In this document: one piece after another, positions 5,525-58,478 of the stretch
How positions within the stretch are numbered: the first letter of the stretch is position 1
How the letters are laid out: every line of letters begins with the position of its first letter
Source of the DNA: Escherichia coli
GTDB taxonomy: Bacteria; Pseudomonadota; Gammaproteobacteria; Enterobacterales; Enterobacteriaceae
Assembly: GCF_009931435.1 (NCBI RefSeq)
Contig: NZ_CP043414.1
Reading direction: 5' to 3' (one strand)
Length of the DNA: 64,000 nt
Translations under genes and position numbers: made by a program
Notes under the pieces: model-generated
Told to the model about the DNA's origin: nothing
The model's input: only the letters and a program-made list of their open reading frames with translations
The model's database searches: none

Positions 5525-5806
5525 ATGAATAAGTACTGGCTGTCAGGAATTATTTTTCTTGCCTATGGAATGGCTTCTCCCGCGTTCTCTTCACAGACTG
5601 CCACATTAACGATTAATGGCAGGATCAGTCCCCCAACATGCAGTATGGCTATGGTTAATGGTCAACCTCAACAGCATTGTGGTCAGTTAACGTATGATGT
5701 TGATACCCGTCATCAGGTTTCTTCGCCAGTCAAAGGTGTGACGACAGAAGTGGTTGTTGCAGGTAGCGATAGCAAACGTCGAATCGTGTTAAATCGCTAC
5801 GATTAA
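5525..5806 (+). CDS. yehE: Small secreted protein YehE
   Basis: 93-aa ORF with N-terminal signal peptide (MNKYWLSGIIFLAYGMASPAFS); position upstream of the yeh fimbrial genes. Confidence 0.75.
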   Translation: MNKYWLSGIIFLAYGMASPAFSSQTATLTINGRISPPTCSMAMVNGQPQQHCGQLTYDVDTRHQVSSPVKGVTTEVVVAGSDSKRRIVLNRYD

Positions 5807-6101
5807 TTTGCCACCCTGGTTTTTTAAGCGGATTTAGAAAGCTGAAATCATTCGTGTGAATGATTTCAGCTTTTTTATTGATATTAATAATACCATTTAA
5901 AAAAATCTGCATTAATTAATAGATGTGATAAATATTTAATATGCTTAAGTATTTGTTGTATTTATATTGCAATAGTTAATTTGTTTTAAATCAATAAAAC
6001 AATATGTTTACATTGCGGCAACTTTTTTGATGTGAGAAATTTGTTTCCAAGAGATACAGACTCTTAACAACCAAAAAATAAATTTTATTAAGGGACATAT
6101 T

Positions 6102-28335: not shown

Positions 28336-28741
28336 GATCGTATGTGCCTTTATGATTGGTCTGTAGATAGTGTAGAGCAGAAAACAAAAGGTGGAGTCAG
28401 AACAGGATGAAAGTCGGAGGATAAAAAGTCAGTTCAAGTATGGAGGATTCAGTGGTTACCACCAGGAGCTTGCAATGGGGGACAGCGAATACTAACGGCT
28501 GCCACCGATAAATTTCAAAAAAGAGCATATACCTAATATTCAACTAAACAGTGGCATCTTCAATATAATATATTAAAGCCCCCATGGAGTTACCCTGAAG
28601 GGCCTCAATGTCCGTAATTCCTACTTATGTAGGAAATGTTGTACAGAACATTTATTATAATCCTATTCAATTATAATAATCATGCCATTATTATATTTAA
28701 ACACTAGAGAGTGTCGTTGGTATTTAATGGGGGAAGGTGAG

Positions 28742-29059
28742 ATGAAAAAGATAGCTGCTATATCATTAATTAGTATTTTTATTGTGTCTGGTTGTGCTGT
28801 GCATAATGATGAGACAAGTATCGGTAAATTTGGTCTTGCATATAAAAGTAATATTCAGCGTAAACTCGATAACCAATACTACACCGAAGCCGAAGCTTCT
28901 TTAGCCAGGGGCAGAATATCTGGTGCAGAAAATATAGTAAAAAATGATGCAGCCCATTTCTGTGTTACTCAGGGCAAAAAAATGCAGATAGTTGACCTGA
29001 AGACAGAAGGTGCAGGATTACATGGCGTCGCTCGTCTGACATTCAAATGTGGAGAGTGA
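28742..29059 (+). CDS. yegR: Small lipoprotein
   Basis: ATG at 28742 preceded by ggggaaggtgag; MKKIAAISLISIFIVSGCAVH has a lipobox (VSGC); 105 aa. Track ORF carries an unlikely 20-codon extension. Gene symbol from position and size, from memory. Confidence 0.65.
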   Translation: MKKIAAISLISIFIVSGCAVHNDETSIGKFGLAYKSNIQRKLDNQYYTEAEASLARGRISGAENIVKNDAAHFCVTQGKKMQIVDLKTEGAGLHGVARLTFKCGE

Positions 29060-29217
29060 GAATATTTTTTGGTAAGCGTCAAACATGCGCGTTCTGGTTG
29101 TGCTTAGCCGGAACCTGTGCGAGCACGATGCCGTTACGTGAAAGGCATCGTGCTATGAAGGGAGATTCTATCGATGTGGTCAATGGAAGACGGTGACCAG
29201 GGATAGGGCTTATGCAT

Positions 29218-54767: not shown

Positions 54768-56621
54768 ATGAGACGATTTCTGACGACGCTGATGATACTC
54801 CTGGTCGTGCTGGTGGCCGGGTTATCTGCGTTAGTGTTGCTGGTGAATCCGAATGATTTCCGCGACTATATGGTCAAGCAAGTTGCTGCACGTAGCGGTT
54901 ATCAATTGCAGCTCGACGGGCCACTGCGTTGGCACGTCTGGCCGCAGCTTAGTATCCTCTCCGGGCGAATGTCTCTCACCGCCCAGGGCGCAAGCCAGCC
55001 ACTGGTTCGCGCCGACAACATGCGTCTGGACGTGGCGCTTTTACCACTACTGAGTCATCAACTGAGCGTTAAGCAGGTGATGCTAAAAGGGGCAGTGATC
55101 CAACTGACGCCGCAGACGGAAGCGGTGCGCAGTGAAGACGCTCCGGTTGCACCGCGCGACAATACCTTGCCGGATCTGTCAGACGATCGCGGATGGTCGT
55201 TTGATATATCCAGTCTTAAGGTGGCGGACAGCGTGCTGGTGTTCCAGCATGAAGATGACGAGCAGGTGACAATCCGCAATATTCGCCTGCAAATGGAACA
55301 AGATCCCCAACATCGTGGTTCATTTGAGTTCTCCGGGCGGGTTAATCGCGATCAGCGCGATCTCACGATATCCCTTAACGGTACGGTAGATGCTTCTGAT
55401 TATCCGCATGATTTAACGGCGGCTATTGAACAAATTAACTGGCAGTTGCAGGGTGCAGATTTACCAAAACAAGGTATTCAGGGGCAGGGGAGTTTCCAGG
55501 CCCAGTGGCAGGAGTCACATAAACGCCTTTCATTTAACCAAATCAGCTTGACCGCCAATGACAGCACGCTGAGCGGGCAAGCACAGGTCACGCTGACAGA
55601 GAAACCTGAATGGCAGCTGAGACTGCAATTCCCGCAACTGAATCTTGACAACCTCATCCCGCTTAATGAAACAGCGAATGGTGAAAACGGTGCCGCGCAG
55701 CAGGGGCAGAGCCAATCAACATTGCCGCGCCCGGTCATTTCTTCGCGTATTGATGAACCGGCATATCAGGGACTGCAAGGCTTTACGGCTGATATTTTGT
55801 TGCAGGCCAGTAACGTGCGCTGGCGCGGAATGAATTTTACAGATGTTGCCACGCAAATGACCAACAAGTCGGGTTTGCTGGAGATTATCCAGTTGCAGGG
55901 CAAACTTAACGGTGGACAGGTTTCACTGCCGGGCACGCTGGACGCGACATCAGTAAATCCGCGGATAAACTTCCAGCCACGGCTGGAAAACGTTGAGATT
56001 GGTACCATTCTGAAGGCGTTTAACTATCCGATTTCGTTGACCGGAAAAATGTCACTGGCTGGTGATTTCTCCGGTGCTGACATAGATGCCGACGCATTCC
56101 GCCACAACTGGCAAGGACAGGCACATGTCAAAATGACCGACACGCGCATGGAAGGGATGAACTTCCAGCAGATGATTCAGCAAGCGGTAGAGCGTAATGG
56201 CGGTGATGTGAAGGCCGCTGAAAACTTTGATAACGTGACGCGGCTTGACCGCTTTACCACCGATTTGACGTTGAAGGATGGCGTCGTGACGTTAAACGAC
56301 ATGCAAGGTCAATCGCCTGTGCTGGCGCTGACAGGGGAAGGCATGTTGAATCTGGCAGATCAAACCTGCGACACCCAGTTTGATATTCGGGTCGTGGGTG
56401 GCTGGAACGGGGAAAGCAAACTGATTGATTTCCTCAAAGAAACGCCAGTACCGCTGCGGGTTTATGGCAACTGGCAGCAACTCAATTACAGTCTGCAAGT
56501 GGATCAGTTACTGCGCAAACATCTACAGGACGAAGCGAAACGTCGCCTGAATGACTGGGCCGAGCGGAATAAAGATTCCCGCAATGGCAAAGATGTGAAG
56601 AAGTTGCTGGAGAAGATGTAG
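54768..56621 (+). CDS. asmA: Outer-membrane assembly protein AsmA
   Basis: 617-aa ORF with N-terminal membrane anchor (MRRFLTTLMILLVVLVAGLSALVLLV). Confidence 0.9.
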   Translation: MRRFLTTLMILLVVLVAGLSALVLLVNPNDFRDYMVKQVAARSGYQLQLDGPLRWHVWPQLSILSGRMSLTAQGASQPLVRADNMRLDVALLPLLSHQLSVKQVMLKGAVIQLTPQTEAVRSEDAPVAPRDNTLPDLSDDRGWSFDISSLKVADSVLVFQHEDDEQVTIRNIRLQMEQDPQHRGSFEFSGRVNRDQRDLTISLNGTVDASDYPHDLTAAIEQINWQLQGADLPKQGIQGQGSFQAQWQESHKRLSFNQISLTANDSTLSGQAQVTLTEKPEWQLRLQFPQLNLDNLIPLNETANGENGAAQQGQSQSTLPRPVISSRIDEPAYQGLQGFTADILLQASNVRWRGMNFTDVATQMTNKSGLLEIIQLQGKLNGGQVSLPGTLDATSVNPRINFQPRLENVEIGTILKAFNYPISLTGKMSLAGDFSGADIDADAFRHNWQGQAHVKMTDTRMEGMNFQQMIQQAVERNGGDVKAAENFDNVTRLDRFTTDLTLKDGVVTLNDMQGQSPVLALTGEGMLNLADQTCDTQFDIRVVGGWNGESKLIDFLKETPVPLRVYGNWQQLNYSLQVDQLLRKHLQDEAKRRLNDWAERNKDSRNGKDVKKLLEKM

Positions 56622-56641
56622 GTTACCAGGTGACCTGTCCT

Positions 56642-56679
56642 GTAGGCCTGATAAGACGCGTAAAGCGTCGCATCAGGCG
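56642..56679. repeat. REP element
   Basis: gtaggcctgataagacgcgtaaagcgtcgcatcaggcg after the asmA stop. Confidence 0.6.
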
Positions 56680-56894
56680 TTCGCGGCGGCACCATTATAT
56701 TCTGAATATGTAAGATCGAAGGCTGTTCCGTTCACTTGATGTTCCTCACTACTATGGAACGCTCAAGCCGGTGAACGTGCCAGGGTGGCTCAATCGCCAC
56801 CACCCTGGCAACCCGGGCTCCCGGCGGTAAATCGCCGCTGGCGCGGTTCCCTCATCTTATTCCTTTCGGCTATCGGGTAAAATGACCGATACCA

Positions 56895-58478
56895 TCACAC
56901 CTCGTACTCCAACTCGCCATCCTTATGCAGCGGAATAATCTGCACCTTCTGCACGCGATGGCTTTCCACCTGCAACGTTTTAAGCAAATAATCCCCCACC
57001 TGAACTTCTTCGCCAGGTTTTGGAATACGCTGTAAATATTCCATCAACAGCCCGGCAATGGTGTGATATTCACGTTTTTCATCCAGCGGCAGCGGCACAT
57101 ATTGCACCAGATCTTCCAGCGGCATATGACCATTCGCCGTCCAGGAACCGTCCGCATTCTTCTGAATATCATGGCGGGCGTCGATCTCTTCCACTTCGTT
57201 CGGTAAGTTACCGGCAATGGTTTCAGTGACGTCACTTAATGTCACAATCCCTTCCACCGAGCCAAACTCATCCACCACAAAAGCAAAGTGCGTGCGGGCA
57301 TTACGGAACTGCTCCAGGGCAGGTAACAACGGCAAGGTTTCCGGGAACACCAGCGGCTGGCGAATCAACACCCGCAGGTTGAGCGGTTCGCCACGCAGTG
57401 ACTGTTGTAGCAGGTCGATAACGTGAACAACACCGAGCAAATCTTCTGCGTCATCACCGTCGGTAACCACCAGCCGCGTATGCTGATTTCGCTCCAGCAA
57501 CTGGCGGATCTCGTCTTCCGGCGCGTTGAGATCGATATGCTCAATATCGTGGCGCGACGTCATAATGCTGCTGACAGTACGCTGGTTAAGATTAAGTACC
57601 CGCTCAATCATCCGCCGTTCCTGCGGATTAAAGATCTGCTGGTTACCATGATCCACCAGCATGGACGCGGTTTCGGCGTCCAGTTCCGCATCTTCTTTTT
57701 GCCCGCTAAGCAGGCGCATTACCGCTTCGGTAGTCCGCTGGCGTAGCGTCTGGTTAGCGGAAAGAAAACGTCGCCGGTTAAAGATAGCCAACTGATTGAG
57801 CGCCTCGATCATCACCGAGAAACCAATGGCAGCGTACAGGTAGCCTTTCGGAATGACGAAGCCGAAACCTTCTGCCACCAGGCTAAAGCCAATCATCAAC
57901 AGGAAGCTTAAGCAGAGAATAACGATGGTCGGGTGACTGTTAACAAATTGCGTTAACGGCTTGCTGGCCATCAACATCAGGCTGATAGCGATAACCACGG
58001 CGGCCATCATGACCAGTAAATGGTCGACCATCCCGACGGCGGTAATCACTGAGTCGAGTGAGAAGATGGCGTCCAGTACCACAATTTGTGTCACCACCCC
58101 CCAGAACTTCGCACCTTTGCGTTGTGTGGGATTATTGCTGTCTTTCCCTTCCAGCCGTTCGTTCAGCTCCATCGTGGCTTTGAACAACAGGAAGAAACCA
58201 CCAAACAGCATGATTAAGTCGCGGGCGCTAAAGGTAAACGAGCGGAAGCTGAACAGCGGTTGCGTCAGGGTGACCAGCCAGGAGATTGACGCCAGCAGTA
58301 ACAGGCGCATTAACATCGCCAGCAGCAGCCCGGTAACCCGTGCGCGGTCGCGCTGCTTCGGCGGTAGTTTTTCGGCGAGGATGGCAATAAAGACCAGGTT
58401 ATCAATGCCGAGGACCAGTTCGATCACAATCAGCGTGATTAACCCGGCCCAGATAGACGGATCGGCAATCCATTCCAT
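56895..58478 (-). CDS. yegH: TerC-family membrane protein with CBS and CorC/HlyC domains
   Basis: Internal ATG gives [34 protein letters not shown] (527 aa); track ORF has a 22-codon extension. Confidence 0.9.

Follow-up and report, generated by a model that had tools for sequence, protein, structure and literature searches.

Genes and features of the asmA-yegH spacer

The window analysed in this work, a 64,000-nucleotide stretch of the Escherichia coli contig NZ_CP043414.1 (assembly GCF_009931435.1), contains the convergent genes asmA (54768-56621, plus strand, a 617-aa ORF) and yegH, coding for a TerC-family protein (56895-58478, minus strand), both named after the annotation of a strain whose spacer is 100% identical. 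The two genes are separated by 273 bp. In the preliminary description this region was presented as a GC-rich spacer between convergent asmA and yegH, with a palindromic segment beyond a REP element, and this picture was fully borne out. The G+C content amounts to 55% in the spacer and 59.6% at 56729-56879, compared with 50.8% in the whole window, and a single REP hairpin (56646-56678, 14-nt arms, 86% complementary) lies just past the asmA stop codon, ahead of the flagged segment. A hairpin of the REP consensus was found at this position only, outside the core of the palindromic segment, and the Rfam REP-type family naRNA4 gave a partial match to it (33 bits against a threshold of 59.5). The REP hairpin directly adjoins the segment, and in one E. 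coli allele (L017, see below) the corresponding element is located between two inverted REPs, but the segment itself has no REP consensus and represents a different, much rarer repeat family than REP/BIME.

The earlier remark that no plausible ORF exists on either strand also holds. The sole ORF of at least 30 aa within the segment is a 31-aa one starting with GTG (56785-56880), and a 63-aa minus-strand ORF (56504-56695) overlaps the end of asmA and the REP; neither is gene-like. That the 31-aa frame exists at all could speak for a small protein encoded there, an explanation which we reject: the ORF lies wholly inside the non-coding repeat characterized below, where 1- and 2-nt indels set the paralogues apart over this part, it has a GTG start and no evident ribosome-binding site, and the frame ends differently in the full-length allele.

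The inverted repeat (56778-56810), previously called near-perfect, is real and in fact perfect over its 11-nt arms, as TGCCAGGGTGG (56778-56788) pairs with CCACCCTGGCA (56800-56810) around an 11-nt loop. As DNA this hairpin folds with -13.6/-13.7 kcal/mol (z -4.7/-4.2 versus shuffles) and as RNA with -22 kcal/mol. It is preceded by another hairpin, H1 (56729-56777), in which the arms cgttcact (56729-56736) and ggtgaacg (56770-56777) enclose an inner hairpin. The stretch 56822-56879 carries the orphaned left arms of long-range helices (aaatcgccg; ttccctcatcttattcctttcggctatcgggt), whose 3' partners are deleted in the window allele, and the only pairing left in it is a local 5-bp hairpin, cggcg/cgccg, at 56822-56837. 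The fold of the whole remnant reaches -73 kcal/mol over 179 nt, with z values of -3.4 and -4.4 for the two strands versus shuffles.

Inverted repeats whose arms are perfect over 11 nt or more and whose loop measures 3-20 nt occur at 3 loci in the 64-kb window, compared with an average of 0.4 in shuffled windows. The other two, at 5838-5873 (16-nt arms) and 29122-29154 (11-nt arms), are each placed shortly downstream of a small ORF (5525-5806 and 28682-29059, respectively) and are probably terminators.

Homology to the TRIP1/RRS repeat family

The TRIP1 repeat reportedly goes back to Rudd in 1999. TRIP1 and the replication risk sequence (RRS) are one and the same element, intergenic, GC-rich, strongly structured and about 222-283 bp long; the RRS at lysO and dusC measure 222 bp and TRIP1a/c/d/e 264-273 bp. 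Li et al. (2024, Genes 15:236; PMC10888264) catalogued the family across 6725 genomes and list five loci: aqpZ-ybjE, putP-ycdN, yohI-yohG, alx-sstT and copA-ybaP. RRS were recently reported to be conditionally essential and to organise replication and topology close to the terminus. The lysO and dusC copies are the RRS of Pham, Cox, Goodman and colleagues, and the element is treated under this name by Pham et al. (2023, NAR; PMC10287960), Pham et al. (bioRxiv 2023.10.01.560376; PMC10592627) and in a 2026 preprint (PMC13308219).

Searching the window by nhmmer with a profile of six E. coli copies revealed sequence homology to TRIP1a and TRIP1c (RRS-lysO and RRS-dusC) at 56720-56878 on the plus strand (E=2.5e-31). 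The match covers profile positions 4-163 of 283 only, and thus the segment is not a full-length element but its left ~57%, with the C-rich strand on the plus strand of the window. A control profile, built of 21 copies without any asmA-type sequence, still found the segment (E=2e-16), and it was the single match in 64 kb. We consider it almost certain that the segment 56720-56878 is derived from TRIP1/RRS. The palindromic spacer thereby turns out to be what is left of a known repeat, and makes a poor candidate for a terminator or a small RNA.

The available copies were compared in three alignments, A1, A2 (29 copies) and A3, and the element common to them is ~280 nt long. Between the REP and the element there is a locus-specific linker (56683-56719, plus strand; alignment A1), without TRIP1 homology and common to all forward asmA-type alleles; accordingly, the stretch common to the window and to the allele L002 starts at 56683, and the nhmmer match at 56720/56723. 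Pieces of the long allele of this locus match elsewhere in every E. coli genome, in a median of 3 places per genome, and the paralogues located between aqpZ and lysO, yohP and dusC, and putP and efeU are the published TRIP1a, TRIP1c and TRIP1b loci, respectively, the first two being the RRS (PMC10888264, PMC10592627).

Neither asmA nor yegH appears in Li et al. (PMC10888264) or in the RRS papers (PMC10287960, PMC10592627, PMC13308219). Identity to TRIP1a is 72.5% for the full asmA-yegH copy and 62% for the part retained in the window, and in the BLAST search of Li et al. a match had to cover more than 80% of the length (PMC10888264), which together explain why the copy was missed in that catalogue. 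The asmA-yegH spacer appears to be a sixth TRIP1/RRS locus, unlisted in published catalogues, and the five types published so far do not exhaust the loci and subfamilies of the family. Like the known TRIP1 copies, the asmA-yegH one is sequence-homologous, GC-rich, intergenic and bound to one locus, and it has the common hairpin architecture. It differs from them in being more diverged, truncated in the window allele, placed outside the five published loci, and in its left end, which resembles a second subfamily found in Kluyvera and Pseudocitrobacter. What is new here appears to be an unlisted, diverged and, in this strain, truncated member; the TRIP1/RRS family itself is known.

Structure conserved among the copies

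In alignment A2 paired cells make up 98.7%, and both partners have changed in 10 pairs, versus 0-2 when the partners were slid. These double-sided changes are distributed among the palindrome (helix 3, two), H1 (helix 2, three) and the long-range helices (five). In helices 6-7 columns 218-232 pair with columns 317-330, with 5 covarying pairs, and the window sequence is gapped at the 3' partners. With two doubtful helices left out, G-U pairs occupy 20 cells of A2 and A-C pairs 14, too even a balance to mark one strand as the functional one.

The palindrome is homologous to the hairpin that carries the G4 sequence in RRS (GCAGGGGGCGGC...GCCGCCCCCTGC). It is present in at least five sequence versions across the subfamilies, all of which fold, with -20 to -34 kcal/mol. 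The counterpart of H1 in TRIP1a/c is the GCGCTCCTT/AAGGAGCGC hairpin, and again all variants fold. The palindrome is thus real, old and constrained at the family level, and may act either as single-stranded DNA or as RNA. The multi-hairpin 'double-Y' structure of the TRIP1/RRS family was not found in the window copy, which kept two local hairpins and has lost the 3' partners of helices 6-12 (A2). As these partners are deleted, the window copy is unable to adopt the long-range 'double-Y' fold seen in the full copy.

Alleles of the locus in E. coli

We surveyed the locus in 5426 complete E. coli genomes, fetching examples, and distinguished at least six alleles. Their counts are approximate, as the search joins pieces up to ~550 bp apart, and were obtained with segment-specific queries; short queries spanning the junction gave 100% coverage for both full-length and truncated alleles and were unusable for counting.

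The simplest allele has the REP only, in a 67-bp spacer (L004). The second, REP followed by the segment described above, is present in the window and in K-12 MG1655 (2,139,486-2,139,758), with 7 SNPs between them in 273 bp. In the third (L007) the REP is followed by a longer version of the segment with 178 extra bp, and the fourth (L003) has a different internal deletion, of 159 bp. In the fifth (L013, 1553-2171; L014) the repeat is missing and a complete toxin-antitoxin pair is found instead, consisting of a Gp49/RelE-type toxin (PF05973, 112 aa) and an HTH_37 antitoxin. The sixth combines both, a truncated toxin of such a pair being fused to the long version of the repeat (L002, 1052-1499), with CATCAG...CG microhomology. 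Moreover, an inverted long version lies between two inverted REPs in L017 (1322-1780), which suggests that the inversion arose by REP-REP recombination. Strains with the full-length allele include ABU 83972 and CUVET20-PYO1, and an inverted allele is carried by 2020CK-00188.

Among strains and species the asmA-yegH element was observed in both orientations (L017, 1322-1780; L031, 8741-9014; L088, 315-585; L077, 8469-8815), as has been described for TRIP1a and TRIP1c (PMC10888264).

The asmA-type segment is present in ~4332 of the 5426 genomes. A full-length forward copy was counted in ~1425, about a quarter, and the complete toxin-antitoxin allele in ~793, including O157:H7 and the type strain; the truncated toxin fused to the full element is rarer (~116). 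By derivation, about 300 genomes have neither the segment nor the toxin-antitoxin pair and are REP-only or other. The window-type truncated allele is the commonest one, carried by roughly half of the genomes, hence it is at least not harmful and could be kept for a reason. The element at asmA-yegH is dispensable. Thousands of sequenced strains provide a natural allelic series, in which the element is absent, truncated (as in K-12), complete or inverted, or has given way to a toxin-antitoxin pair. The series could serve to ask which parts of RRS and which orientation matter.

The sixth allele brings in another explanation of the segment, namely a remnant of the toxin-antitoxin cassette (the toxin 5' end or a promoter/operator) with the palindrome as the antitoxin-binding site, since in L002 the truncated RelE/ParE-type toxin gene abuts sequence equal to window positions 56683-56879. 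We rejected it. The complete cassette of L013 differs in the N-terminus of its toxin and in its promoter region, blastn of the spacer against the cassette allele gave only chance matches of up to 13 nt, tblastn with the toxin gave nothing, the translated frames are against such an origin, and the palindrome is homologous to the TRIP1/RRS hairpin.

Transcription signals

Two possibilities raised in the preliminary description, a bidirectional terminator and a 3'-UTR-derived RNA, found no support in the sequence, where a truncated TRIP1/RRS copy was identified instead. What was rightly stated there is that the segment is not a known small RNA: an Rfam 15 scan of 56300-57300 (E<=10) gave no family in the segment, and returned outside it the REP-type naRNA4 along with noise. 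An intrinsic terminator scan of the same interval found 0 terminator-like sites on both strands (1.1 expected), the hairpins of the segment are not followed by any T/U run, and the only promoter-like site in a promoter scan lies inside yegH. A search of the literature for a yegH/asmA terminator returned nothing.

REP-like hairpins are known to protect 3' ends. This, the position of the segment between convergent genes and the strength of the local hairpins formed by either strand (-73 kcal/mol over 179 nt) would fit hairpins acting as a bidirectional terminator for asmA and yegH transcripts, or as the source of a stable 3'-UTR RNA. Against such a role, besides the lack of terminator sites, of a T/U run and of an Rfam match, stand the strains with the REP-only 67-bp spacer, with the toxin-antitoxin replacement or with the inverted segment, as well as the fact that the sequence is explained by descent from a repeat and not by local selection. 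We hold this role to be hardly probable. The hairpins may nevertheless have a passive effect on yegH or asmA mRNA at the 3' end, and would at most slow down exonucleases on read-through transcripts.

Deletion and ancestry of the window copy

Pairwise comparison of L007 with the window localized the deletion junction to 56875-56879, where the microhomology GGGTA is shared by both borders (ATC|GGGTAC ... ATT|GGGTAA). The missing 178 bp (L007, 991-1168) contained the most conserved 100 nt of the family, nearly invariant in A2, and this deleted core consists of two hairpins with GGA-containing loops. E. whittamii, Escherichia sp. E1V33, MOD1-EC7003 and SCPM-O-B-8794 have full-length copies at asmA-yegH, in one or the other orientation, which makes the long form the ancestral state and the window form a derived one. 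The copy of E. whittamii carries an extra structured insertion of ~75 nt.

The ancestral copy at asmA-yegH was thus full length, and the 178-bp GGGTA deletion took place in the lineage of the window, as in K-12, leaving two local hairpins, one of them the palindrome, and unpaired left arms. Replication slippage across the folded element is a likely mechanism of this GGGTA-GGGTA deletion.

The same core was lost independently in the L003 type, by the 159-bp deletion, and in K-12 TRIP1b (putP-efeU), where profile positions 94-216 are missing; an internal deletion of 125 bp has been described for TRIP1b (PMC10888264). The asmA-yegH copy is similar to TRIP1b as a secondary copy from which an internal deletion removed the two-hairpin core. 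In contrast to TRIP1b, which retains both ends and the G4 hairpin sequence, it retains the left end only, and its deletion reaches the flank. Either the core is easily deleted, or selection acts against additional active copies.

All three core-removing deletions are placed at short direct repeats (window 56875-56879; L003, 1697; L102, the K-12 putP-efeU locus, 640).

Loss of RRS properties

The G4 20-mer of RRS, GGGGGTGCAGGGGGCGGCGG (PMC10592627), is the G-rich arm of the RRS hairpin homologous to the window palindrome. This 20-mer is absent from the window even with up to 3 mismatches allowed. The corresponding strand reads GGGTTGCCAGGGTGGTGG there, with a G4Hunter score of 0.96 versus 1.84 for both K-12 RRS.

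In K-12 coordinates the asmA-yegH copy (L012, minus) and RRS-dusC (L015, plus) are on opposite strands, 90 kb apart and on the same replichore, the replichore being assigned from the known positions of oriC and dif. Due to this opposite orientation the G-rich strand of the asmA-yegH copy is the leading-strand template, and not the lagging-strand template as in RRS; it is the C-rich strand that serves as template for the lagging strand. The window copy has in common with RRS a palindrome homologous to the G4-bearing hairpin, and differs from it by the truncation, the lack of the G4 motif and the G-rich strand opposite to that of RRS-dusC. With the G4 lost and the G-rich strand on the leading-strand template, it most likely has no RRS action, that is, it would no longer form the programmed lagging-strand block leaving a post-replication gap. 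RRS trigger ssDNA gaps in the lagging strand, onto which RecA/SSB are loaded. In MG1655, which has the same allele, ssGap-seq revealed two prominent ssDNA/RecA peaks only, at lysO and dusC, and no ssDNA-gap peak was reported at asmA-yegH (PMC10287960).

We therefore read the segment as a truncated TRIP1/RRS copy which probably no longer works as RRS and persists as a neutral relic, and give this reading a probability of roughly 80%. A point against it is that the remnant folds better than shuffles (z -3.4 and -4.4).

Some residual RRS-like activity at the DNA level is also conceivable: hairpins formed on the single-stranded lagging template would occasionally stall synthesis and make the locus a weak gap-, recombination- or deletion-prone site. 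The palindrome hairpin is stable as DNA, and the locus is unusually rearranged, with two independent microhomology deletions, inversions and a toxin-antitoxin junction. The C-rich strand of the complete RRS, when it is the template for the lagging strand, as in the asmA-yegH copy, also gives gaps in vitro, in about two thirds of encounters and less efficiently (PMC13308219). However, the copy has lost the G4 motif along with more than 40% of the element, the rearrangements may predate the truncation, and the prominent MG1655 peaks mentioned above are confined to lysO and dusC. We regard such activity as unlikely and prefer the relic.

Resemblance to TwoAYGGAY RNA and wider distribution of the family

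TwoAYGGAY (Rfam RF01731, clan CL00106) is an RNA motif described by Weinberg et al. (2010; PMC2864571) and proposed to bind CsrA (Gardner and Eldai 2015; PMC4333381). On their G-rich strand, the full-length asmA-yegH alleles and TRIP1a/c score 30-31.5 bits with this model, against a gathering score of 43. The full-length E. coli copies have the same outer stem followed by two hairpins, with the loops ACAUGGAUGU and ACAGGGAUGU, but remain below the gathering score. The loops of the core hairpins match the reported CsrA-binding consensus. In the window no match to RF01731 was obtained at E<=10, and both AYGGAY-type hairpins belong to the deleted 178 bp. The TRIP1 paper and the RRS papers mention neither Rfam nor CsrA, and a literature search for a link between aqpZ/lysO and CsrA found none, its sole match being an unrelated paper on Pseudomonas RsmV.

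TwoAYGGAY-like cores were located on the minus strands of L002 (1646-1789), L007 (944-1087), L008 (2614-2753) and L005 (2535-2674), and further loci matching this motif were L027 (2218-2281), L085 (4104-4167), L084, L039 and L083.

An exact scan of 100,044 species genomes with an 18-mer of the core returned many unrelated taxa, and its matches were then checked with the profile. Confirmed in this way were only Escherichia, Kluyvera, Pseudocitrobacter, one further Enterobacteriaceae genome, Edaphovirga (weakly) and Lachnospiraceae (core only). Salmonella, Klebsiella and Citrobacter gave no match to the 18-mer, and any copies present there differ in it. The Lachnospiraceae sequences retrieved are bona fide TwoAYGGAY RNAs (72-79 bits), and 24 nt (CAGCCCACAUGGAUGUGGGCUGAG) are identical between them and the E. 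coli copies.

Edaphovirga cremea (L054-L064) has at least 11 loci with the core 18-mer and weak profile matches (positions ~63-220), which may represent an expanded, diverged family.

Kluyvera and Pseudocitrobacter possess, beside the RRS-type copy, a second, inverted one, whose core reaches 49.2 bits and thereby exceeds the RF01731 gathering score. This second copy and the asmA-type element have in common the left end, GTTCCGTTCAC...GTGAACG, and the palindrome, and the right part of the asmA-yegH element is TRIP1a-like, with 90% identity. The element consequently looks mosaic, composed of the second subfamily on the left and of TRIP1a-like sequence on the right.

In L085 (3750-4316; Kluyvera sichuanensis, beside xthA), L027 (1867-2431) and L094 (5316-5885) the two diverged copies are arranged tail to tail and form an imperfect palindrome of ~570 bp.

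One may go further and see in asmA-yegH a sixth, ancient TRIP1/RRS locus of the second subfamily, and in the whole family an enterobacterial branch of TwoAYGGAY. We put this forward as a tentative idea, less probable than not. Through the resemblance of the cores, an element acting on DNA and a candidate CsrA-binding RNA become connected in a way open to testing. If the idea were true, RRS would also be transcribed, with two ACA(N)GGAUGU hairpin loops binding CsrA; alternatively, TwoAYGGAY of gut Firmicutes would really be a DNA-level replication element. The repeated loss of the core at secondary loci, twice at asmA-yegH and once at TRIP1b, would then reflect selection against extra active copies.

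Two rearrangements involve other copies of the repeat. In the strain CFIAFB20120266 an IS of the IS110 family splits TRIP1c at yohP-dusC within the loop of the second core hairpin (GGTAACGT | IS | CCTTGTAAGACG; L006, 1117-2500), which hints that this loop is a specific IS110-type target. In the 2.8-kb MAG contig L026 the ends of yegH and dusC directly adjoin each other, flanked on either side by copies of the repeat. This arrangement stems either from recombination of the asmA-yegH copy with the dusC copy or from a chimeric assembly across the repeat.
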